Source of the DNA: a virus
Reading direction: 5' to 3' (one strand)
Virus genome (UHGV): UHGV-0236300
DNA: 64,000 bases
The number at the start of each line of letters is the position of its first letter. The first letter of the stretch is position 1. The position numbers were made by a program, and so were the translations under genes. The notes beneath the pieces were generated by a model. That model did not search any database. It was not told where the DNA came from and worked only from the letters and a program-made list of their open reading frames with translations. Shown here piece by piece: positions 3,001-63,471 of this stretch.

Positions 3001-3899
3001 AGGTAGACTCCGCAGGGAATAAGTATGTGGCAGGTATCCAGTTAGGCATGGAAGGCTCTGGAGGCCAAGTTCAGTCATATTTCATGGTTAGCGCAAACAA
3101 CTTTGCGGTATACAACCCAGGCAATGGGACAGCAACCCTTGCTTTCGCAATCAAGAACAACCAAGCGTTCTTGAAAGACGCTTTTATAGAGAACGGCACG
3201 ATCTCTTCTGCCAAGATCGCGCAAGAAATTTCGTCAAACAACTACGATGGCAATGGGTACCACAAATACGGTTGGTATATTAACAAGAACGGGCACGCCC
3301 AGTTTATGGATGTGTGGGTGAAAGGTAACATTAACGCTAGTGCAGGTAACTTCACAGGGGCAGTTAACGCCACCAGTGGTACCTTCCGTGGGGATGTTTA
3401 TGCCAACAATGGTAGCTTTAGAGGGACCATAGATGCAACAGGAGGTACATTCCGTGGACGTGTAGAAGCTTCCGTTATCCGTGCTAACCAGTTCGAAGGT
3501 GCAATCGTTGCACACAGGACTTACGGAGATTGTGCTCCAGTATATAACTCCCAGCAAAGGGTTTGCCGTTGGAGGTGGAGATACGTAGATAACGTTTCAG
3601 GTCAGGGTAAGAACGTAACATTCTTCTTTAAACTGAATGGTACTCTTGCCAGCTCCCAGCTGAATGCATGGATAGCTGGTCATCAGATCCTTGCTGGCAA
3701 GAAGTATTTTAACGACAACAACGGCATGTGTGCGGTAGGGATAACAGGTCTGGGTGAACAAACTATAGACATTGTTATCGAGATTTACACACCGTGGTCA
3801 ACGTCTAGCGTGACAGGTGTCACAATCTCCTGTCCCACTGTGATCGTTAGTCGTTCTAACTCAAGCTTCCAGGGACCTTGGAACGAGTCTCACGACTAA
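60..3899 (+). CDS. tail tip / central fiber protein, lambda J-like host specificity protein with coiled-coil repeat insert
   Basis: RBS GGAGG upstream of ATG; segments PEAPVSVEVKQGYFAITLIPH and YYWYIRTTNAFGSSQFVE resemble lambda J FN3 region as I recall it; C-terminal GxFRG repeats; terminator follows. Confidence 0.8.
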   Translation: MPIAMIDNIVASARSSSYDWNASKAALADSLNTVTTRTLDKIFEGNKSYRSQQDRQKLLRSSAAPCSVVYGKTRTSGLLAFLEQDRDRTLHCAIVLANHPLEGIEDILIDGNPISSYGDLVSWELHNDRKTSDPFMGTHCPSWSPDMIGRGISWLRASFKFDPNKFPFGLPNVTLVKVGKKCYDPRISKEVYTNNAALVILDYLRTYLKCPDETINWESFKEAANICDEAVKNADGTSERRYTINGEFDMDEAPASIMAEMLKACGADLSYVAGKYGLLVGAYYGPATMTLSEDCVCGEVKIYPEASFDKRSNTITGRFTSPTKGYSETDFPSVFVPEWVEKDGERKIIDIDYRFVTSPYQAQRVSAIFLRRARAGRIIEVTCNMRGFKFKPGRYVTMDLPSIGIVGQEMRVLEWEFTKKGGVKVKLRQDAKEWNDATGQLPDSGDVDIPISPSGVAQPQNFRYSVLQAGEVTHGVLAWDNVGTYAQNIVQVRKNGEIIWTAQTVEQFVRVEGLTKGSYTATVVATSYKGGVSPEAYCEFNIQAPEAPVSVEVKQGYFAITLIPHSRDLASVSTQYDFWTSGMTRLPDTSDATVTSKATRMGVGSTWTSEGLQNDKIYYWYIRTTNAFGSSQFVECAARCYTSIEDLMPQIDAEFKKTETYKELMSTLDSSIEEVENRVTELNKYMDGRVDEAFQQLGDRIGAVVTETTQKFEDVNGNITALDRKLVAAQNKFTNDLNTESGRLASLIETTNKATTDLLNKKTEALDEKLVAAKGELVEQIDGVESGYLAGDKTLDGKINTQRTELDASILSTNKATVDLLNKTSETLDQKISQTNATVSKNYTTLDGKITTAKTDLNTLIANTNKATTDLLNQKTSALSEQITSARGEISTNKQAIKDLDGKLTSTKTALDATISDTNKATVDLINGTASAIRQELAVAKQEIIDDVGDVSELRAAVATTSKAVTDLEGKVNAQWGTKIQVDSAGNKYVAGIQLGMEGSGGQVQSYFMVSANNFAVYNPGNGTATLAFAIKNNQAFLKDAFIENGTISSAKIAQEISSNNYDGNGYHKYGWYINKNGHAQFMDVWVKGNINASAGNFTGAVNATSGTFRGDVYANNGSFRGTIDATGGTFRGRVEASVIRANQFEGAIVAHRTYGDCAPVYNSQQRVCRWRWRYVDNVSGQGKNVTFFFKLNGTLASSQLNAWIAGHQILAGKKYFNDNNGMCAVGITGLGEQTIDIVIEIYTPWSTSSVTGVTISCPTVIVSRSNSSFQGPWNESHD
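2310..2880 (+). repeat. four in-frame tandem repeats (about 155-185 nt) encoding TNKATxDLLNxKT coiled-coil units
   Basis: ACCAA(T/C)AAAGC units at about 2310, 2496, 2649 and 2811. Confidence 0.7.
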
Positions 3900-6193: not shown

Positions 6194-8265
6194 TGGCAAC
6201 AGCTGTTTTTAAACCTTACCGTGATTACTCTACAATGGCTGCACGGTTTCATTACCGCACAGTTCAGGATACTGCAGTTCCGGGTAGGGATTATGATCAT
6301 GTTGAGGGCGATGTAACTATCCCGGTTGGGGCAACCAGTATCGAGATCCCTGTAGAAATTGTTGACAAATTGCCAAACAGGTTGCCAAGGAGCTTCTTTA
6401 TGGAGTTTTCATCAAACTCCCAAGGGGTTATGATTGGAACACAAAGAGCGAAATGTACAATAGTTTCAGATGAGAATCTTGACAGAATATCTTGGGATAC
6501 AGTTGAGGAGAGAATGTTTCACCCAAGATACTGGGTTACAACCACACAGCAGACTGAAAGCACCTGTATTGTTGCGGATAATAACTGCTGTATTAACCGT
6601 TTAGTGTCAAGAACATATGGGGGCATGGCTGGGTGCATTTGGGAAACAGTTGACAAGTATGACCATTTCGGCATTGGATTTGATGATCACTACGAGATGA
6701 GAAACACCAAGCTTTGGTTCAGAATGTCAATAACCAATGCCAGCAACTTCTCCACCCCTGAAAAGATGATTATGACTGTAGACCTTGTTGATGGTACAAT
6801 CATCTATGTTCCTTTAGCTCAATATGCTGTCAGCATCTCAGAGGATAAGAATGTTGCAGAAATTCATATTGATTTCGAGGACTGCGTCGGGATGGACCAG
6901 AACAACAACATGATGGGTGTTGATCCTCGGCAGGTGAGAAGGATTCTAATACCACTTATGCCTAAAGATTGGGTAGGTAATAGCACAGACCCGAGAACGG
7001 AAAATGTAGAGTGTGAGTTGCGTCTAGATCTTCTTCAGCCGGACACAGGCTGGAAAATGATGCAACTTAACAATATTCAGGTGAAAGAACACGATGTTGG
7101 GATCTGCACAGCATATGACGATATGTGGAACGTATCCCCTTTAAGGGTGTTGAGCAATATCAAGCGTCTGGGCTATACAGGAACCATAAACCATTATGTT
7201 GGTATGAGCCATTATTATGACTACACATGGTCAGGAACCCAATGGTCTATAAACAAAACAGGAGCTCTAAACGCTGCAGCTTATAAATGGCATGATGATT
7301 TTATGTACAATGCCAAACGACATGACTTCGACGTTATGCAGTCTGTAAGCTTTGAGCTTTATAGCGATGCCTGTCCGTTGGAATGGACCCAGAGAGACTG
7401 GAACGATAACTATGCTAAAACAGGCTATACGCCTTGTAGTTACCTCCTGTCTCCAACCATTGAAGAGGGCATGAATTTCCTTACTGCAGTATTTAAGAAT
7501 TTTGCATCAGCCGCTATGAGAAACAACCTGCCAGTGATTATGCAGATTGGTGAACCGTGGTGGTGGTTCAATACCGATACTCGTAAGCCTTGTATTTATG
7601 ACTACCCTACAAAGCAGGCGTTTTATGATGAGACTGGTGAATATGCACTAGACATTGGGACTATTGACGATCCTAAAACTGGCGGTGTTTATGACAAGTA
7701 TGTAGCATTTTGTCGTGGTAAGCTTGGCGCTCGTATTGCAGCCATTTCAAAGGCAATAAAAGCACACGCTGCATCGGCTCAGATGACAGCTTTACTGTTT
7801 TTCCCCACTATTATGGAAACCGAGCTTACGCAAAAACTGAACCTTGCTGACCAATATAAAAAGGAAGCAGGTGCTCTTGATTTCTTCTGCACTGAGTGCT
7901 ACGATTGGGTGATGCAGGGAGGTATTGAAAAGGCAAAAGAGTCTGTAAACATACCTATCGTTAAGTTAGGTTGGAAACCGTCTGAAATACAATACCTTGC
8001 AGGGTTCGTTCCTAGCAAAGAGCTTGCTCCGGTATATGGCTACGACCCAACCAGGAATTACCAAGAATTTTTATGGAGATGTATTTGCGGAAACATGGCA
8101 ACCATAGAGTATAGATACCCTGAGGTAAAACAGTATGTGTGGGCATACCCGCAAGTAATGTCTGACAGCATCACTGTTACCGCCAGAGATTCTACTGTTC
8201 TGCATATGGGGCAGGTTGCTCTGAAAGGGTATGTAGAAGATGTTGTTCCGCCAGACTTCTCATAA
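6193..8265 (+). CDS. putative tail fiber / baseplate structural protein
   Basis: 690-aa ORF, ATG overlapping upstream stop (TAATG), RBS AGGAGGG. Confidence 0.6.
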   Translation: MATAVFKPYRDYSTMAARFHYRTVQDTAVPGRDYDHVEGDVTIPVGATSIEIPVEIVDKLPNRLPRSFFMEFSSNSQGVMIGTQRAKCTIVSDENLDRISWDTVEERMFHPRYWVTTTQQTESTCIVADNNCCINRLVSRTYGGMAGCIWETVDKYDHFGIGFDDHYEMRNTKLWFRMSITNASNFSTPEKMIMTVDLVDGTIIYVPLAQYAVSISEDKNVAEIHIDFEDCVGMDQNNNMMGVDPRQVRRILIPLMPKDWVGNSTDPRTENVECELRLDLLQPDTGWKMMQLNNIQVKEHDVGICTAYDDMWNVSPLRVLSNIKRLGYTGTINHYVGMSHYYDYTWSGTQWSINKTGALNAAAYKWHDDFMYNAKRHDFDVMQSVSFELYSDACPLEWTQRDWNDNYAKTGYTPCSYLLSPTIEEGMNFLTAVFKNFASAAMRNNLPVIMQIGEPWWWFNTDTRKPCIYDYPTKQAFYDETGEYALDIGTIDDPKTGGVYDKYVAFCRGKLGARIAAISKAIKAHAASAQMTALLFFPTIMETELTQKLNLADQYKKEAGALDFFCTECYDWVMQGGIEKAKESVNIPIVKLGWKPSEIQYLAGFVPSKELAPVYGYDPTRNYQEFLWRCICGNMATIEYRYPEVKQYVWAYPQVMSDSITVTARDSTVLHMGQVALKGYVEDVVPPDFS

Positions 8266-16400: not shown

Positions 16401-19093
16401 ACCCATATATCATCATGACAGCACTGAGATCGAACATGGACGGAACATCCATATCTATGCAAGTTCCAGTAACAAACGGGTACAAACGTGTTGTGATGAT
16501 CATTAAGTGCGACTTAATAGGTAAGCAAGTTCTTGCAGAAAACGGAACCTCAACACATCTATTCGAGACTGCTCTGCATTATCAGTTTGCTGATTCACCT
16601 TTTGCAGGGGATAAGAGAATATCTGATACAGACAATACTCGATGCAAGAAATTTATGCTTGGTGGTGGATGGTGGTGGTATGAATTTGATTTAACAGACA
16701 AATTCACTGACACGTCTAAAGTGGTGACAGGGCTTCGTCTAGATCTTGGCGAAAACATGCACAAAAGTGTTTGTGATGGCACCTACGGTGACCCAACAAT
16801 CTACTTAAAGTATGTCTCTTTTGAGCATCCGGAAGATGTTGTTTACGGTCCAAAACTGAGATTGTTTGGCAGTTGGATTGCAAAAGACAGGGTAGGCATG
16901 GGTAAAAAGGTAAGAGGGTTCTTGGTTGATGCAGGAACAGAAGACATGCTGGTTAATGCAGTGTGGCCTGAATTACCTGGGACTCAGTGGGATAACTCAG
17001 CCAAGTCCATAAACTGGTTCAACATTCACAGAGCTATGTGGACAACTAACTGCTACCTGTGGAAAGAGTTGAATGACGGCGCTTTCGGGTTTACAGGTGG
17101 CAGAAGAATGGCAATCATTTGCTGGACAACGCTGCAAAGATGTTATGACCATGACTACGAGATTGGGGGTAGGGCATGGAAAAATATTAGGGATAGAATC
17201 ATAACTAACTTCGCAGACCCTAATGGTGGTGGAGCGTATGGCTTCGACTGCAGCAGGCTCATCCATTTGAACGGGTCCTCTGCATATAAGAAAGAGGGTT
17301 ACTCTGGATCTATGATTGAGTGGGGCCTGGTGAAAGATGCTCGCGTATTGATGGGTCAACAACTTGCTGCTGCAATAGGACCTAACGCAGTGCAGTCTGT
17401 TAAACCAGCGTGGTTCGATATCCCAATATGGTCATCTGGAACACCAGGAACTGCGGCAATCAACCCTACCACTGGGGATCTGGAAATCTCTTGGGAGGAC
17501 TTGAAGCAGGTTGGTGGCTGGGATAAGACAGGCTACCAGGTACAATGGTGGAGATCTGACGGATCGTTAGCGGCTGATGAGTTTGTTAAGGACAATTTCT
17601 ACACTATGTCCTCTGCAAAAGCACAGCAATTGTTTGGTCAGGCAACTCCGTCAACGATCACCATGTCCATGTGCTGTAAAGACAACAGGACTGGAGCCCT
17701 GGGACCAAGGGTTGCTAAAGTTTTCTCAGGTATTAAATGGAATCTCCCTGTTCAAAGTGTTTCATGGAAGCAAATAGGTGATAACAAGCTGCTGGTTACC
17801 CCTGCTTGTCAGTTCAACGCAACTCTTAACGTTGATCCTGCTGTTGCGGCAAACTCAGCTAAAGCTTCTGACTTCTCTGTGTCTAACACTGCTATGGCAG
17901 ATGTGAGGAAGATTGACACACTGAACGCCAGAATTACCTGTAAAAACACTTATGGCACATTCCAGATCATCAACAACTTCACAGATGCTGATTCTAAGGT
18001 AGTGAGGACAGCAAGCCAGACTATGCAGTTGGGCACTCTGGCATACTCTGCCCTGATCACTGAACAATCTCCTACTCTTCAGGGTGGGGGTGTTGGTAAG
18101 TTGATCACAACACCTGTGTGGAAGCCAAATGAGTGGGTTGTGTTTGATTTGACCGTAGACTTCTCCAGTGACAATAACTGGACATGGGTAAGGAATTGCT
18201 TGTCACAACTGATGGGTGGTCCAAGCTCCGTTAGTGATAGCCACGACTCCACTGACCCGAGTGTGTTCCAGGTAGGTAAAACTCACCCAGAGACTGGAGA
18301 AACGTTGCCTGACAGGAAGTATGCTTTGGTTTGCATCTCTTACGGAAAAGCAGATGTCACCTTCTCAGGGACACACGCTTATAACGGAACTTACAACTTC
18401 TCAAGGAAGTACAGTCTCAAGGCAGGTAACATTATAGATGAAGTTGGTGCGTTGTATAACCCAGGTAACGGCATAGGGATTGTGGGTGGTAAACTGCAGA
18501 TGCAGGAACCTTCTATTACCCCTTCCAATGTGTCTGGGATTAGAAAGACTTGGGAAAGCAGTAATACCAACATTGCAACAGTGGATGCTACCACAGGGCT
18601 GGTAACATTTAAAGCTCCTGGTAATGTCACTATAAAGTTTGTAGCTACTGATGATGCAGGTCGCAAAACGTCTTCAACATCTTTTACTGTCAAACAGATG
18701 ACACCACAGTGGAGAATGTGGATAGGTACAGCAACAAACGGGGCATACCCTAATCCGGCAGGGACTTCTGGTATGAAGACTTTTGCTACAAGCAAGCCGA
18801 TGGAGTACGGCAGCGGTCCTAAGGTAGGGCAGATGGTGTACTTTGGTGCATATATTCCTGAAATTATAGGGCTTCCGAGAAGTCAGCTTCAGTTGCTGTT
18901 TGGGGCTGGTGTTGACGATCTTGCCACTTTCGGGTATAGCGACAACATCGATGCTGCAAGGAGTTCAGGATGGGTAGGGTTCAGAATGGAGTCTGGAAAG
19001 GAAGGCAGGATTCTAGGGACAGCCTCTATAGGTGTTATGTTCCCTGGTGACCAGCAGTATCGTCTGGGAGCCTACGCGACTTTCTCTCTTTAA
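13457..19093 (+). CDS. giant virion structural protein (1878 aa) with C-terminal Ig-like (Big_2-like) domain
   Basis: Single uninterrupted ORF; C-terminal segment NIATVDATTGLVTFKAPGNVTIKFVATDDAGRKTSSTSFTV resembles bacterial Ig-like group 2 domains; last gene of late module. Confidence 0.7.
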   Translation: MLPIPLLKLGRHFLDKRGGVKELAVLSYPIDNSDGTSTTVAYVNSLAILFDDGQLNITGYNKFGECRTGDRNPINYPSETAWNVDHVWRADRAFVIRTFDNQFFYIGCTAGLIGSTAAGGNDVCVNEWTPLPEQIVQGLHLDTHPERLIEVMGGINNTVWVMAEAEGDGILHLYGSGNNTYGSLHVDKNQHATPVKIGETSENPETGPWKNPSINCEVHDNSVIFGGPRGFWIAGYDFLRNNSRNDLVWPPAQITRNDLKGIPADEEWKGFMCGPNGAIIATQRMHKPNDQQLVNVFYGQDVWGDDTWRSLNITYTHEVIMARGYGTSGIFFNNGTKQYRGFSRNLCNDIGAQSANNNPRANFIHYQALATAKYVEQRLPVSWTESVYFQGIHREGFLGTFTVVNGKLWWSGIPRGSFAGSNNLFGGRLNSQGFTEVPENWYKNVPVDSWGVDDIFDVNGVSSVSNIYIGDTVKMKLKPQPEGATFIIDKIELVNAAGTVVTDANYQFSTNWNHGGANEVVVTQYNRNVNRRGLYSVKITYHDKHGTGRTHTTRTLNWNTIVPAYPSDGKWHTVGRNKQFHVNDTVYFGLNGTQPAVEGDTSYMVRLHRMDAGSVTYDVTQEIYDQRRNTYNNLVQTQAVWEFNPNGRGGKMLQVNEQNGTSLTVHEHPDPWPDPGKPHPGARTLKIVSHDAGYFGIRWEATVRYADGTTNNIGITLGGTSEDSSLKIAYTPRGISIDNMDVVRNGYGDVNVKVTLGEHLGGERIIMYAFDHDPRTNGTYANQAWSYLINAPEPNTKEFYYGMKRDVCKKTGTHDWIAICVKDERTAWDEPVNRWFIGIPTRSDKYIAEYIVCMGGTNLNMCWNEDANKYSDYDYMRDYSCNQWFNQSTGYPPRQARVNPAIFTDTQVFLTKQANEVQTFKNKYDPNKWFYNCYGAFFWGPGELPNGGSCFEAATYASDRFMGQVKKYKIIPGPETLGNAVDPYIIMTALRSNMDGTSISMQVPVTNGYKRVVMIIKCDLIGKQVLAENGTSTHLFETALHYQFADSPFAGDKRISDTDNTRCKKFMLGGGWWWYEFDLTDKFTDTSKVVTGLRLDLGENMHKSVCDGTYGDPTIYLKYVSFEHPEDVVYGPKLRLFGSWIAKDRVGMGKKVRGFLVDAGTEDMLVNAVWPELPGTQWDNSAKSINWFNIHRAMWTTNCYLWKELNDGAFGFTGGRRMAIICWTTLQRCYDHDYEIGGRAWKNIRDRIITNFADPNGGGAYGFDCSRLIHLNGSSAYKKEGYSGSMIEWGLVKDARVLMGQQLAAAIGPNAVQSVKPAWFDIPIWSSGTPGTAAINPTTGDLEISWEDLKQVGGWDKTGYQVQWWRSDGSLAADEFVKDNFYTMSSAKAQQLFGQATPSTITMSMCCKDNRTGALGPRVAKVFSGIKWNLPVQSVSWKQIGDNKLLVTPACQFNATLNVDPAVAANSAKASDFSVSNTAMADVRKIDTLNARITCKNTYGTFQIINNFTDADSKVVRTASQTMQLGTLAYSALITEQSPTLQGGGVGKLITTPVWKPNEWVVFDLTVDFSSDNNWTWVRNCLSQLMGGPSSVSDSHDSTDPSVFQVGKTHPETGETLPDRKYALVCISYGKADVTFSGTHAYNGTYNFSRKYSLKAGNIIDEVGALYNPGNGIGIVGGKLQMQEPSITPSNVSGIRKTWESSNTNIATVDATTGLVTFKAPGNVTIKFVATDDAGRKTSSTSFTVKQMTPQWRMWIGTATNGAYPNPAGTSGMKTFATSKPMEYGSGPKVGQMVYFGAYIPEIIGLPRSQLQLLFGAGVDDLATFGYSDNIDAARSSGWVGFRMESGKEGRILGTASIGVMFPGDQQYRLGAYATFSL

Positions 19094-58457: not shown

Positions 58458-58522
58458 TACAACAGGTTGCATGGTCAGGGGCGATAAAGCCCCTTGATCA
58501 CATAAAAATTATGCTATCCCTT

Positions 58523-58551
58523 GTTGACAGGGATCGGCAGTTTTGCTATAT
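58523..58551 (+). promoter_or_regulatory. sigma70-like promoter
   Basis: TTGACA-17-TATATT. Confidence 0.55.
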
Positions 58552-58601
58552 TCTTTTTTGAAGGGAAGTTGTAAGAAAATTAACTAAGAGGTAAAAACAC
58601 C

Positions 58602-59021
58602 ATGAACATTAAATCTGATAATCCGGCATATAGCTTTGATAACGCTTTTTGTCACGGTCCGGCGGCGAAAGGATTCGAAATCGATGGTAAACTAATTATT
58701 GTCAATGTTGACGGGGAAGAGGTTGCAGTATATCCGGTGGCAGACGTTAAAAGCCGTCTACAATGCCGCATAGATGTTACCGCCTATCAGCTTGATCCGG
58801 TCCGGGTAGTTGCCCTGGTCCTGGAAGAAGAAATTAAAGCAATGCACCACAGCAACAAGTTTATTGGTGACGCTCAAGATAATATGCAGGTATGCCGCTA
58901 TAAAGTTAATGAAGTGCTTAAAGAGTACGGCTATAAGGATTTAATGATCAAGCGCGATGAAAAATTCCGCTACCGTAACGACCTGGCAAATCGGATTTTT
59001 GAAATATACGAATCATTATAA
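58602..59021 (+). CDS. hypothetical protein
   Basis: RBS AAGAGGTAAAAA; terminator follows. Confidence 0.55.
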   Translation: MNIKSDNPAYSFDNAFCHGPAAKGFEIDGKLIIVNVDGEEVAVYPVADVKSRLQCRIDVTAYQLDPVRVVALVLEEEIKAMHHSNKFIGDAQDNMQVCRYKVNEVLKEYGYKDLMIKRDEKFRYRNDLANRIFEIYESL

Positions 59022-59040
59022 TTTCTTAACTGAATTATCA

Positions 59041-59067
59041 AGGGGCTTAAAGGCCCCTTTCTTTTTG
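59041..59067 (+). terminator. rho-independent terminator
   Basis: AGGGGC-TTAAAG-GCCCCT hairpin plus TTCTTTTTG. Confidence 0.75.
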
Positions 59068-59929
59068 TCTGCTCTTCTCCTACCATAAACGGCCCTACCT
59101 GGCAAGTGGAATAATTGACTAGCCATCAATCCCACATACTGTACAAATATACATGGAAAATAACTATTGCATAATCTTTCATTGTGTGGTAGCAGGGCCA
59201 TTTTTACCCGTTTTCTCTCCCAAAAGTGCACGTAATGCCGCTATTGCACAAATTTTAACCTGATGCACATCTCCAATATCTTGTCAACAACTAAAAATCT
59301 TTATAAGTCATACACTTACACAGCATCGAAAGCGTGTTCTACGCGAAAAATCGAGTATAACTATAGCCGCCAGATCTCAGAATTCACGTACGCACGCCAT
59401 TCTATAGTCTGCAAAGTATTTATTCCAACCACAGAATAACGGAATAGTCAATACCTGCATAAAATAATTATTCGTGTAAACTGCATAACATAAATCAGCT
59501 CAGGTGTCAACATTTTTCGTAAACAGTTCGAAATTGTCACGATAAGTTATTATACACAGAGAAATCTTTAGTCGTCTAATGTTTACTGTACATTACTATA
59601 CTGACTGGAATCATTAGATGACTAAGAGAAAGATAAGAAATAATTAATAATGTAATTGTTTTACCTGTAACAATAAGGCAACTATGCAAACGAATGGCAT
59701 GGCGCGACGGAGTCGCGACATAATATAAAAGCAGTAACAATCACCCCCGTGATAGTTTTTCTGCAATCTATTATTCAGATCATAGTTGCCTTGTATTTAG
59801 TTAATCATGACATAACAAGCAAGGCAACTATAGATCTTCTAATAGTTGCCCTGCTTTTATATTATGTCATAGATTGTTATCTTGTTAATTGTTTTCATGC
59901 AAACGAATGTCATGGCTTATCATCTCTGT

Positions 59930-60100
59930 GTAAACAATTTGGGCGTAAACTATTCAGATGAAAACTATTCAGGCGTAAACAGTCTATGCGTAAACAGTGA
60001 GATATGGAATAGTAACAGCCGTTATTGTGTCATATTGTGTCATTGTGTCAAAGGTAAAAGTGTCAAAAGTGACAATTTTGTCACATTGTGTCAGACAAGT
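59930..60100. repeat. iteron array: GCGTAAAC direct repeats, then TGTCA/TGACA repeat cluster
   Basis: GCGTAAAC at 59943, 59973, 59988 (and 60310); AAACTATTCAG x2; ATTGTGTCA x3 and TGTCAAAAGTGACAATTTTGTCACATTGTGTCA at 60024-60096. Confidence 0.65.
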
Positions 60101-60622
60101 TTTTCTCCTCTTTGTCAAGTGCCGCATGAAAAATTTACAAACTGGTATGGTAGCATTTTTGCGGCCCTGTTTACATTCAGGAATGTATGTATAATCCTTG
60201 CTGTGTGGGCGTTTAGACGTCTGGACGGTCAGAAGTCAGCAGGTCAATATCTAATCTATTGGTTGCTAACTATATCCCACACAAATAGTAAGAAATATAA
60301 TTGTTATGTGCGTAAACAGTAACTCATGTTATCAATCCCTGTATGTATCGCCAGTGGTGCGCATAATGGGTATTATGTTAAATTGCCCGTAATGATAACC
60401 ATTCTCACAATGATAGGTATTCTCATTCATCCCCACAAGATAGATTGCAAATGTTGTGCCACTGTGTGAACGGCCTCACCTATTAATTTGCCTCACTGCC
60501 TCGATATTTGAGAATTATTATAAAAAATGAGAAGTATTCCCATTCCGTCCGCCTGGCAGCACTCCTGTAGGACAAGCACAACATCGGGGTATAACTGGAC
60601 CTGTTCAGATATTTCTGGCTGA

Positions 60623-61163
60623 CTCTTCAGGCCTGTGTGGGAAAAGCCAACCTCTCCGGCGGCGGGGAGGGGGGTCAATTAAAAAATTTACGTGGTGTAT
60701 GAAGCGCTCTTCAGGCAAGGTGTGTATTATGGGATGAAACCCTCTTCAGGTGATGATATTTGTGGGGGGATATTTGCTGGAAAGCCAGATATGACGGGGC
60801 TCCCGGCGGGGATGGGGTAGTACAGACAGGGAAAATGTGGGGATGTGGTGGGAGTAAATTGATCAAGTAGGTAGGATATGGAATATGTTACAAGTATGTT
60901 AAATATAGAGGTAGGATATTTGTGAGATTTGTGTGTAAAATCAAAGACTTAGGTGGTGTTGTGGTATTTTCTATAAATAATTCAAGTTTAATAGGTGATA
61001 TTTGTCTCCATCCACTTTGTGTGGTAAACAGCTCCTAATTGAATTGGTTTACAAGTGTATATAAAGTATACAAATTAAAGATATAAGAAACCCCCCTCCC
61101 CCTTCGGCTACCATTCACCTTTTCCTCTGACTGGTACTTAAACACTTATTCAGACTCTTCAGG
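60623..61163. repeat. dispersed CTCTTCAGG motif copies in G/T-rich non-coding DNA
   Basis: CTCTTCAGG at 60623, 60708, 60742 and 61155 (fifth at 61815), each followed by GT-rich tract. Confidence 0.55.
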
Positions 61164-61526
61164 TTATCACCCCTATACTATATGGCAGTGACTGGTGTCC
61201 TCCGGCCCCTCTTTCGCCACCCGTCCGCTTCGCCATGCTAATGCCATAGCCAAAGGTTCGGTTGTTCACCCTGTTCACTCAGGTGTATCTCCATACCCCT
61301 TCAAACCGAAGAGAACAGAAAACCCGAATTACTCGGTAAAAGAAAAGAGAAGAACTTAATTTTATCAAGATAGGCAAGAATGTCAAGGGATGACTGCTCA
61401 CTAAACAAGCAAACAGTCATGTGTGGTAGGTAAGTAACTGGGTTGGTAGGAAATTTAGTTGGAAGATGTTATAGGTGCCTCCAGAACCTTAGCTGGGCAG
61501 CTAAACCTGCAAAGCAGACTTGTGTG

Positions 61527-61742
61527 TCAGTCCAAAGGTTCATCTACTACTTCACTGAAATCAATGTTCAGGGTCTCTTCCCAACCATCAATCTCAGCAC
61601 CAGAGTAGAGATCTTTAGGGTCTACATCAAGGGCTTCCGCAACAGCATCTATATTTAACACTTCTGGCAGGTAAGATTCATCGAATTCAAGGTAAATCAG
61701 GCCACGAGTGTTGTCAGTCCCACCAAATATTTCTATTTTCAT
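61527..61742 (-). CDS. hypothetical small acidic protein
   Basis: ATG 5 nt after AGAGGAG (track start 61808 lacks RBS). Confidence 0.5.
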   Translation of the reverse strand: MKIEIFGGTDNTRGLIYLEFDESYLPEVLNIDAVAEALDVDPKDLYSGAEIDGWEETLNIDFSEVVDEPLD

Positions 61743-61862
61743 GAAATCTCCTCTGGAAATGAGAGTGTGAACAGGGTTTATACGTTCCAATACGCTGGAA
61801 TTATGCACGTTTGCCTCTTCAGGCCATGCTTTAGCATGATAAACTTATGTGGGCTCGGTGCT

Positions 61863-62048
61863 TCATAGTCTCCCACCTCTGAACTCTTCGTGCTCGGGCA
61901 TAATAGAGAACCAGATGGCTATGATATCTTCCCACGTTAGGTCATCAGCCTCAGGATCCACCTGGGACGGAGATAGAGAATCCTCAGAATTGAAGTTTTC
62001 CTCTATCACTCCTTCAGATGTCTCTGTAGATGCATGTGTGTTGGTCAT
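61863..62048 (-). CDS. hypothetical small acidic protein
   Basis: Minus-strand ORF consistent with neighbours. Confidence 0.35.
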   Translation of the reverse strand: MTNTHASTETSEGVIEENFNSEDSLSPSQVDPEADDLTWEDIIAIWFSIMPEHEEFRGGRL

Positions 62049-62546
62049 GTTCCACCCGTGAGTATTCCGGCAACATGTTTAAAAAATAAGACTTTATCAA
62101 CATATGGCCGGAACGTGTCGATGCCATAAGCATATTCCTGCAACAGCCGCTATGGACGTAATGATCATCAGGATCACCACTAAAACCTCTGACAATGTTT
62201 TCATTGTGTATTCCATATTATCCAAACAATGTGTGGATACTATCACAGGGGCGGTAATGTGTCAACAGAAGCGCCGCGAGGGTTTGGTTAAAATCCGAGC
62301 GTATGGTGATTTGGGTCAAAACGGGCGTGCGTTCTCGCTACGCTCGAAATAGAGAGTTGTTTGTAGGATGACTTTAAACGCTCTGTAAGGAGATTAATTG
62401 TCTAAGGTATGGAATCGTGCACCAGATAAAGAAAAGGACGCCACAGAGCGTCCTAGGTGCCTTAAATTTGATATTTTGCTATACCCATGAGGGCTTGTCT
62501 AGGTTGGAGTAACTGAAGGGGGTCAAAAGGTGACTGTCAAAATCTT

Positions 62547-63165: not shown

Positions 63166-63471
63166 TTATTCTGCAGAGCGTTTGAACAGAATGTCTGCTT
63201 CAGACATGTGCTCAACCTCTTCTTCGATTTTAGCTCGACGTTTTTCAGCTTCGTAGCGGATATCGAATTCGGTAGCCACCAATGACTTGATAAACTTAGG
63301 AGAATACAGGTGATCCTGTTTCTCGACAAGAATAATATCCTTGATAGCGTCTTTCAGATCTTTAATCTGAAGCTGAAGTTCCACCAGCTCTTCAATTGTT
63401 TTACGGAGGCGATCACGCTCTGCAGTGTCAGAAGGCAGAGAGGTGAACAGTTCAACTTTAGATTTAGCCAT
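63166..63471 (-). CDS. hypothetical coiled-coil protein
   Basis: ATG after AAGGAGAC; charged heptad-like sequence. Confidence 0.55.
   Translation of the reverse strand: MAKSKVELFTSLPSDTAERDRLRKTIEELVELQLQIKDLKDAIKDIILVEKQDHLYSPKFIKSLVATEFDIRYEAEKRRAKIEEEVEHMSEADILFKRSAE

Follow-up and report, generated by a model that had tools for sequence, protein, structure and literature searches.

In phages T7 and T3, Dunn and Studier are said to have described in 1983, the short-repeat arrays SRL and SRR flank the terminal repetition, and the promoters phiOL and phiOR lie close to the genome ends. Here we describe a comparable arrangement in the UHGV virus genome UHGV-0236300, in a stretch of 64,000 nucleotides (hereafter the window), in which the nine-base word CTCTTCAGG is repeated on one strand beside a direct terminal repeat (DTR). 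The array is a so far undescribed case of repeated cis-acting words beside a phage genome end. The window shares with T7 and T3 a short DTR of hundreds of base pairs, non-coding flanks with repeated words on the same strand just outside it, promoters (predicted ones in the window) that fire across the concatemer junction and T7-like replication genes, but the likeness is one of layout only, with no sequence relation. In T7, the same heptamer stands on both flanks in near-tandem copies, and the phage has its own RNA polymerase. The flanks in the window differ from each other, with CGTAAACAGT and ATTGTGTCA on the left and CTCTTCAGG on the right, and the copies of the latter are dispersed over 1.3 kb, reach pairs of promoters and terminators between genes and are associated with predicted host sigma-70 promoters.

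Three copies of a short word within ~50-200 bp on one side of the virion-end cut also recall the R1-R3 sites of lambda cosB and the hexamers of P1 pac. Those arrays are binding sites of the small terminase subunit, whereas the word described here is a candidate. Its distance to the cut changes from genus to genus, a single orientation is used, and there are additional copies within transcription signals, at more than 1 kb from the cut. A position at about -31 to -23 in combination with ordinary -10 elements is shared with the T4 MotA box (at -30), the lambda CII site TTGC-N6-TTGC and the lambda Q-binding element. Like operator or activator words, it has extra upstream copies 24-52 bp away and can be swapped without changing the promoter core. 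Unlike MotA-dependent promoters, however, several of the word-bearing promoters keep a consensus -35 element (TTGACC), and the word is confined to one 1.3-kb locus rather than forming a genome-wide regulon, with no MotA/AsiA, CII or Q homologue identified.

With boxB of the lambda nut sites the word shares CCUGAAGA and, often, a place on top of a hairpin on early transcripts, but the loop is a GAAG tetraloop or 6-7 nt rather than a GNRA-like pentaloop, the register varies and the phage is not lambdoid. The sense strand has no boxA CGCUCUUA. In its loop, register and lack of boxA, the word does not match a lambda-type nut site, which has a 5-bp stem below the pentaloop, boxA 8-10 nt upstream and an N-type antiterminator. 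Finally, Arbiol et al. reportedly described in 2010 the PeSL (promoter-stem-loop) cassettes of T4-type phages, which likewise are repeated modules of a promoter and a stem-loop between small early genes. The PeSL units are of ~50-70 bp and are spread across hyperplastic regions, whereas only a word of 9-15 nt is common here, and only beside the DTR.

An oriented word on the right flank of the terminal repeat

Five copies of CTCTTCAGG were found within ~1.2 kb of the window, all on the plus strand and spaced 84, 35, 413 and 660 bp apart (Table 1). This confirms the clustering noted in an earlier reading of the letters of the window (hereafter the original prediction), in which four of the five positions were exact; the second copy starts at 60707 and not at 60708. 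Over both strands of the window the word occurs seven times, against 0.66 expected, and none of 100 shuffles reached seven. The composition-based Poisson probability of at least five same-strand copies in 1.2 kb is ~2e-15. The two further copies in the window, at 18075 and 35478, both lie inside long open reading frames (ORFs), as do all four copies that ECP32, the closest genome, carries in its other 69.6 kb. In the complete genome of the Mydovirus KPP-1, four non-coding copies all fall at 114989-116411, next to or inside the DTR, and the other four are in ORFs. The non-coding copies in these genomes are thus all within ~1.3-1.5 kb of the DTR, which refutes the suggested promoter class as a genome-wide one, with the motif upstream of many genes. 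A scan of the IMG/VR collection for TTGACCTGAAGNGTC gave ~120 scattered single matches, consistent with chance for a 14-mer. The analysis gave no evidence for the endonuclease targets that the original prediction had also offered. Restriction-site readings of the word, based on CTCTTC (EarI) and CTGAAG (Eco57I), were considered and dropped, as was a Chi-like reading of the neighboring GT tracts.

The window is, by sequence similarity, from an rV5-like E. coli phage. Positions 60000-62400 match 122 phage records at 90-97% identity, nearly all of them Vequintavirus (rV5-like myoviruses), with ECP32, ECP26 and B9-1 as the best matches. The plus-strand genes stop at 59021, with a strong terminator behind them (59040-59059), and the minus-strand genes end at 61527, so that the ~2.5 kb at 59060-61527 form a box between convergent gene blocks. 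No credible ORF was found in this box, which is unannotated or called non-coding in relatives, and the prediction that the region is not coding sequence is borne out. Hidden small genes were considered and rejected, as the only ORFs are of at most 54 aa and lack a ribosome-binding site (RBS), and a near-invariant block in the box is unchanging at all positions; no protein searches were made for them. In the rV5 genome paper, the box is drawn in grey as "non-coding" between genes 163 and 164, without an assigned function (PMC3606486). In 14 Vequintavirus relatives, the copies of the word occupy homologous positions. All 15 sequences have copies 1, 4 and 5, 14 have copy 3 (it is mutated to CTCTTCAGA in B9-1) and 13 have copy 2 (it is lost in FV3 and L006). 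However, the conservation of the whole box equals or exceeds that of the flanking genes and the region is 90-100% conserved within the genus, and the conservation of the word within Vequintavirus alone therefore proves little.

The physical genome ends could be placed inside the box by homology. The 459-bp DTR of phage Gotham maps to the window at 95.4% identity, and the Gotham record has identical 459-bp repeats at both ends, which its authors deduced from a doubling of the read coverage and from a single start of packaging (PMC7471380). The records of EdH4, HdK5, bov11CS3 and Gotham have the exact equivalent of 60553 as their first base, and those of Pr121LW, YN3 and ECP2309 start or end at the equivalent of ~60094. 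In KPP-1, a 514-bp DTR was confirmed by PhageTerm (PMC9862379). This repeat is homologous to the DTR of the window and has the same convergent non-coding setting, and the boundary sequence, GTCCG(T/C)C before and T(A/G)GCA after the cut, is conserved between the two. Hypervariable sequence flanks both DTR boundaries on their outer side. Between Vequintavirus and Mydovirus, Seunavirus or Certrevirus, only the interior of the DTR is detectably homologous (nhmmer).

The comparison across genera covered 1.6 kb to the right of the DTR in six phages from three genera (the window, KPP-1, PVP-SE1, 4MG, GAP31 and KE22). On the strand corresponding to the plus strand of the window, C[A/T]CTTCAGG occurs five times in the window, three times in KPP-1, four times in PVP-SE1, three times in 4MG, four times in GAP31 and five times in KE22, where ~0.05 copies are expected per locus. 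Against these 24 copies there is none on the opposite strand of the right flanks, and none in the left flanks of the six phages. The right flanks of Mydovirus and Seunavirus cannot be aligned with that of the window, yet the word is kept on the same side and the same strand. In an unbiased ranking of recurrent k-mers shared by the six right flanks, CTCTTCAG(G) came first and TTGTGTGG(T) second, which are exactly the two features, the word and the GT-rich tract, that had been singled out from the window. The idea of a repeated recognition site agrees with this behavior, the word being strand-specific, conserved and kept across genera with diverged flanks.

The copy nearest to the DTR cut site lies at +54, +55, +70, +165, +309 or +377 in the six phages, a range of 54 to ~390 bp. 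More copies lie between genes, 1.2-1.5 kb from the DTR. In Mydovirus and Seunavirus, the whole right flank is merely ~335 bp. The original prediction had also proposed packaging signals at a virion end. It came close as regards the location, since the DTR adjoins copies 1-3, but the variable cut distance and the distant copies fit a cut-positioning signal poorly. Phapecoctavirus has a different DTR, without the word.

Each copy was also expected to be followed by a GT-rich tract. This holds for copies 1-3 and loosely for copy 5 (TGTGGG 29 nt downstream), but not for copy 4. The short words of the right flank are CTCTTCAGG, GATATTTG and TGTGTGG, and the last of these also occurs at 59183, 60202, 61018 and 61420. 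The G block GGCGGGGAGGGGGG (60661-60674) and the C block CCCCCCTCCCCC (61091-61102) are where they were said to be, and form a 12/12 inverted repeat, 414 nt apart. Long-range pairing between them was rejected, as the complementarity is not maintained in relatives; the G block differs in length and sequence among them, whereas the C block does not. The G block lies ~110 bp outside the DTR, and KPP-1 has an analogue, GGGGGAAGGGGGG, ~130 bp outside its own DTR.

Table 1. Coordinates and properties of the features discussed in the text (window positions unless another locus is named; distances are from the right DTR boundary).
Feature	Position	Strand	Description
Copy 1	60623..60631	+	Minus strand reads CCTGAAGAGTCAGCC; 70 bp outside the right DTR boundary
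Copy 2	60707..60715	+	84 bp after copy 1; +154 from the DTR boundary
Copy 3	60742..60750	+	+189 from the DTR; minus strand CCTGAAGAG-N10-CATAAT, with the -10-like hexamer at 60731-60726
Copy 4	61155..61163	+	Within the near-invariant, genus-specific block; +602 from the DTR
Copy 5	61815..61823	+	In the gap between two minus-strand genes; +1262 from the DTR
GT-rich companion TGTGTGG	60634..60640	+	ACCACACA on the minus strand
Direct terminal repeat (DTR)	60094-60553		459 bp; physical genome ends, placed by homology
Near-invariant block	61085..61430	-	345 bp, Vequintavirus-specific; conservation 0.95-1.0, against ~0.85 in neighboring genes
AT-rich centre	60880..61085		GC 0.31; between a G-rich plus-strand stretch (60600-61000) and a G-rich minus-strand stretch (61000-61300)
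Type A site	Sister genera		Word tops a canonical terminator, GGGAGCC-UGAAG(A/U)-GGCUCC-UUUUCUUUU
Type B site	Sister genera		Word overlaps the -35/spacer of TTGACC-N17-TATACT; RBS and annotated gene follow; 52 bp after type A
Type C site	Sister genera		TTGACCTGAAG(A/T)GTCAGCCCTG(C/T)-TAT(T/G/A)(C/G)T right after the last gene, pointing at the DTR
AATGA-type palindromes elsewhere	L150 (CR3) 7600-8230; L018 (KPP-1) 3200-3260; Mt1B1_P17 DTR

Promoter and terminator signals around the word

The minus strand is the sense strand of the adjacent genes, and the word there reads CCTGAAG(A/T)G, usually after a CACACAA-type tract. A promoter reading with the GT-rich tract downstream is not supported, since the promoter-linked word is read on the opposite strand and the tract then lies upstream. 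In the sister genera the word is found in three contexts (types A-C in Table 1). The type A terminators of KPP-1, 4MG, GAP31, PVP-SE1 and KE22 have folding energies (dG) of -13 to -17 and z-scores of -2.6 to -5.4. The type B sites of KPP-1, 4MG and GAP31 are near-consensus promoters with the word at about -31 to -23 and a second copy 52 bp upstream. In PVP-SE1 and KE22, the orthologous B/C promoters retain their -35 and -10 elements and carry GTAAACTGT instead of the word, and three copies of the word, 24-28 bp apart, stand just upstream of the orthologous promoter. This exchange, with the promoter core kept, indicates that the word is a module separable from the promoter core, and it speaks for B and C being promoters.

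In a sigma-70 promoter one expects a -10 hexamer (TAnnnT) at a set distance from the word, a -35-like hexamer 16-18 nt upstream and a gene or transcript downstream. Candidates by this measure are copies 3 and 5 of the window, each with a CATAAT hexamer, and the B/C sites of KPP-1, 4MG, GAP31 and KE22. In the sense orientation, a -10 hexamer lies 9-10 nt downstream of 8 of the 26 copies, six of them with a 5/6 match, against a background of 0.027; in the antisense orientation, none of the 21 copies outside Vequintavirus has one. Copy 5 reads CCTGAAGAG-N9-CATAAT on the minus strand (hexamer at 61805-61800), ~55 nt upstream of a GAGGAG RBS and the ATG at 61742 of a 71-aa gene. The sole substitution in its -10 hexamer among relatives changes CATAAT to TATAAT, in four of them, i.e., toward the consensus, and its distance from the DTR matches that of the type B promoter of KPP-1 at +1267. 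Copy 1 shares 15 of 16 nt with the type C element seen in KPP-1, GAP31 and KE22, although its -35 and -10 hexamers are degraded in the window. That it keeps CCTGAAGAGTCAGCC after the loss of the hexamers points to selection on the word itself. Copy 2 has no promoter-like -10 element in the sense orientation, and no partner element could be recognised for copy 2 or copy 4.

An oriented, one-sided word that is kept across genera and recurs in promoter, terminator and bare contexts is most simply explained as a sequence-specific recognition site. Control of DTR-directed transcription is the best supported function, because of the overlap with the -35/spacer region, the paired upstream copies and the survival of the word after promoter decay. 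We tentatively favor an operator-like function, in which a protein binds the oriented word on the signals for DTR-directed transcription. The five copies would represent one cis-acting word, 5'-CCTGAAG(A/T)G-3' in the preferred minus-strand reading, which marks the 1.3-1.5 kb where the long leftward transcription unit (rV5 genes 82-163) heads to the DTR. A putative sequence-specific DNA-binding protein, probably encoded by the phage and with GGCTGACTCTTCAGGCC as its candidate duplex target, would act on this transcription. The bound protein would switch those sigma-70 promoters whose -35/spacer the word overlaps, which would be the case at copy 5 and probably copy 3 in the window and at the B and C promoters, TTGACCTGAAG(A/T)GTC...TATACT / TAT(T/G/A)(C/G)T, in Mydovirus and Seunavirus. 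At copies 1, 2 and 4, with their decayed hexamers, it may continue to mark the DTR flank or to insulate it, either by acting as a polar roadblock against RNA polymerase or by joining the nucleoprotein complex at the concatemer junction.

Several observations weigh against an operator-like function. A plausible -10 element is present at only two of the five window copies, with none at copies 1, 2 and 4, and 18 of the 26 copies overall have none. Furthermore, the antisense reading on the plus strand of the window also yields -10-like hexamers at three of the five copies, which makes Vequintavirus on its own ambiguous with regard to the promoter link. In five phages the word tops a genuine intrinsic terminator hairpin, which a DNA operator would not need, and not all of the spacings agree with helical phasing (those of 84 and 52 bp do; those of 35, 28 and 24 bp do not). 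The equivalent flank of Certrevirus CR3 contains only the degenerate CTCTTTAGG...TGTGGG, plus one intergenic copy, and several of the occurrences across genera are orthologous, so that the independent observations are fewer than the raw counts. Literature searches brought up the reports of DTRs and the "non-coding" label, but nothing on the word or a protein that binds it, and nothing on packaging signals or transcription maps for the subfamily. Among the neighboring proteins, PHROG and Pfam scans found one "transcriptional regulator" only (phrog_639, 63166-63471), with no link to the word.

The invariant block and other explanations for the array

Copy 4 lies within a near-invariant block that is specific to Vequintavirus. 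The minus strand of this block carries a sigma-70 promoter, with TTGACA at 61386-61381, a spacer of 16 nt and TG-n-TAAAAT, a consensus-like extended -10, at 61364-61359, and it ends in G5AG6-UUUCUU (the C block on the plus strand), just before the AT-rich stretch. The block end, GGGGGAGGGGGGUUUCUU, resembles the mitochondrial CSBII, and a small terminator-like hairpin is seen inside the block at 61336-61324 on the minus strand. The GC skew rises to +0.65 at 60800-61000, drops to -0.36 at 61100-61300 and flips at ~61090. On the minus strand, the stretch 60560-61000 is rich in C and poor in G, as in a Rho utilisation site. No homologues of the block were found in other genera (nhmmer), in E. coli genomes or in phages outside Vequintavirus. 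The z-scores of its RNA fold are -1.45 (minus strand) and -0.26 (plus strand), and an Rfam search of both strands of 58500-62500 gave no match at E <= 1. This also led us to reject a structured RNA or ribozyme, which had been considered because CUGAAGA on the minus strand resembles the hammerhead core CUGANGA. The block may be a non-coding transcript or a primer/origin element directed at the DTR, as far as its sequence features indicate.

The mapped end at 60553/60554, with copies 1-3 at distances of 70, 154 and 189 bp, raises the question of whether the word is the assembly site, beside the DTR cut, of the small subunit of the terminase or of an accessory factor, and so directs concatemer cutting and DTR duplication. 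Both 4MG and KE22 have a copy at +54/55, the non-coding copies in whole genomes are confined to the DTR flank, with one orientation and one side in six phages, and the sequence of the DTR boundary is conserved between the window and KPP-1. We nevertheless consider a packaging role rather unlikely, since the six phages do not have a fixed geometry between the nearest copy and the cut, the copies at 1.2-1.5 kb are inside promoter/terminator pairs between genes, and orthologous sites can drop the word yet keep the promoter. Moreover, the palindromes AATGA..ATTCTCATT inside the DTR are a better candidate for the whole family, being present even in Phapecoctavirus, which lacks the word. The word could also act as RNA. 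In that case, CCUGAAG(A/U)G would be recognised on minus-strand transcripts at the 3' end of the leftward unit and would serve in termination or antitermination, or in the processing or stability of the RNA. It is always in the sense orientation of the adjacent genes, it often forms CCU-GAAG-AGG or GAC-CUGAAGW-GUC hairpins, it caps the canonical terminators of five phages, and it has CCUGAAGA in common with boxB of lambda nutL, GCCCUGAAGAAGGGC. In the window, copy 5 folds as GCCU-GAAG-AGGC beside a second hairpin (z = -3.0), but copies 2-4 are essentially stemless and none of the five copies has an intrinsic terminator (a GC-rich hairpin with a U tract). The hairpin register is inconsistent between sites, with GAAG, UGAAGW, CUGAAGW or AGWG in the loop, which indicates that the sequence is kept rather than the structure. 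At type B sites, transcription would start only downstream of the word, and there is no boxA-like partner on the sense strand, no stem covariation and no Rfam family at the above threshold. An RNA element is for these reasons decidedly unlikely.

Iteron origins have an AT-rich element next to several direct repeats of ~17-22 bp, which are in phase with the helix and bound by an initiator, and comparisons for R-loop or primer-type initiation are provided by T4 oriF and oriG, ColE1 RNA II and the mitochondrial CSBII, which works with a T7-like replisome. One could imagine the words as iteron-like, and the promoter at 61386-61359, G5AG6 and the AT-rich centre as an R-loop type origin near the genome end. 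This would agree with a strong conserved promoter aimed at an AT-rich stretch of ~200 bp, with a transcript that ends in GGGGGAGGGGGGUUU and with the flip in GC skew; also the 345-bp block is nearly invariant and the repeats are direct. However, the word is shorter (9-15 nt) and more dispersed than typical iterons, the other word-bearing genera, with their short right flank, have neither the block and its promoter nor the AT-rich centre, and the G block is variable. A primase-helicase of the T7 type and a family A polymerase are encoded in the phage family, which favors such an origin, but skew changes in rV5 were reported only where transcription switches direction (PMC3606486), and we find an origin very unlikely. 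There is equally little to be said for a relic, i.e., a word without a function of its own, left as a fragment of locally duplicated promoter-terminator cassettes similar to the PeSL units and hitch-hiking in a conserved region. The stretch TTGACCTGAAG(A/T)GTC(A/C), common to the B and C promoters, does suggest duplication, the word occurs in terminator, promoter and bare contexts, and its conservation within the genus is not discriminating. Yet the 9-mer, the strand and the side have been kept between genera with unalignable flanks (24 vs 0), and copy 1 has retained nearly all of its element after the promoter hexamers decayed.

Finally, the word array, the promoter at 61386-61359, its purine-rich transcript with the CSBII-like G5AG6 end and the AT-rich centre could together form a device that couples transcription to the processing of the genome end, although we regard this as highly improbable. 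Host RNA polymerase would be driven toward the DTR and stopped or handed over at protein-bound CCTGAAGAG sites, and the resulting R-loop or paused complex would prime DTR duplication or recruit the terminase. Such a device would be a host-polymerase analogue of T7 phiOR and of the pause requirement at the concatemer junction.

The remainder of the box and its importance

To the left of the DTR, at 59925-60093 (and also at 59518 and 60311), there are same-strand arrays of CGTAAACAGT (four copies) and ATTGTGTCA (four copies). These arrays are hypervariable, with strong differences in copy number and order between relatives. GTGTC is the recognition word of the T7 gp4 primase, and its presence in the left-flank arrays of a phage with a T7-like primase-helicase is suggestive, by analogy. 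The sequence GTAAACTGT, noted together with these arrays, is also what PVP-SE1 and KE22 have in their promoter spacers in place of CCTGAAGWG. The left part of the box also contains ATAGTTGCC/GGCAACTAT repeats, a cluster of inverted repeats at 59668-59868 that includes the perfect 18-bp pair GACATAATATAAAAGCAG / CTGCTTTTATATTATGTC, 116 nt apart, and a duplicated ATGCAAACGAATG(G/T)CATGGC at 59684 and 59897.

At the right boundary of the DTR, 60554-60600 is a hot spot for indels, 17 nt outside the boundary, where most relatives have hairpin-rich inserts of 20-57 nt (e.g., CTAGCTGAAAGCTAG) and the window has none. The repeated palindromic elements inside the DTR, AATGA(T/G)A...ATTCTCATT, lie at 60388-60432. 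They are also found in Certrevirus (at least six copies), in Mydovirus and in the otherwise unrelated DTR of Phapecoctavirus, and to judge from this distribution they are, for the family as a whole, better candidates than CTCTTCAGG for a site bound by a terminase or initiator. The last plus-strand gene before the box (58602-59021) encodes a protein of 139 aa (phrog_12277) with no assigned function. A protein that is ~89% identical is present in Phapecoctavirus, which belongs to another subfamily, and there too the gene adjoins the terminal repeat of the genome; this suggests an exchange of an end-proximal module. A search for related loci with the 71-aa neighboring protein found only four loci, and the window has no tRNA or tmRNA.

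The rV5-like phages (Vequintavirinae) are widely used candidates for therapy and biocontrol, and the 2.5-kb box has been unexplained since the publication of the rV5 genome. The physical genome ends are now placed inside this box, and one flank carries a strictly oriented word that is shared across genera, within promoters and terminators that point at the DTR. This provides concrete targets for mutation in studies of transcription control at the genome end, concatemer cutting and repeat duplication. In the engineering or rebooting of such genomes, the right flank of the DTR should be kept intact. Should the word turn out to be a terminase site or a site for processing of the concatemer junction, it would be the first defined packaging signal for the subfamily.

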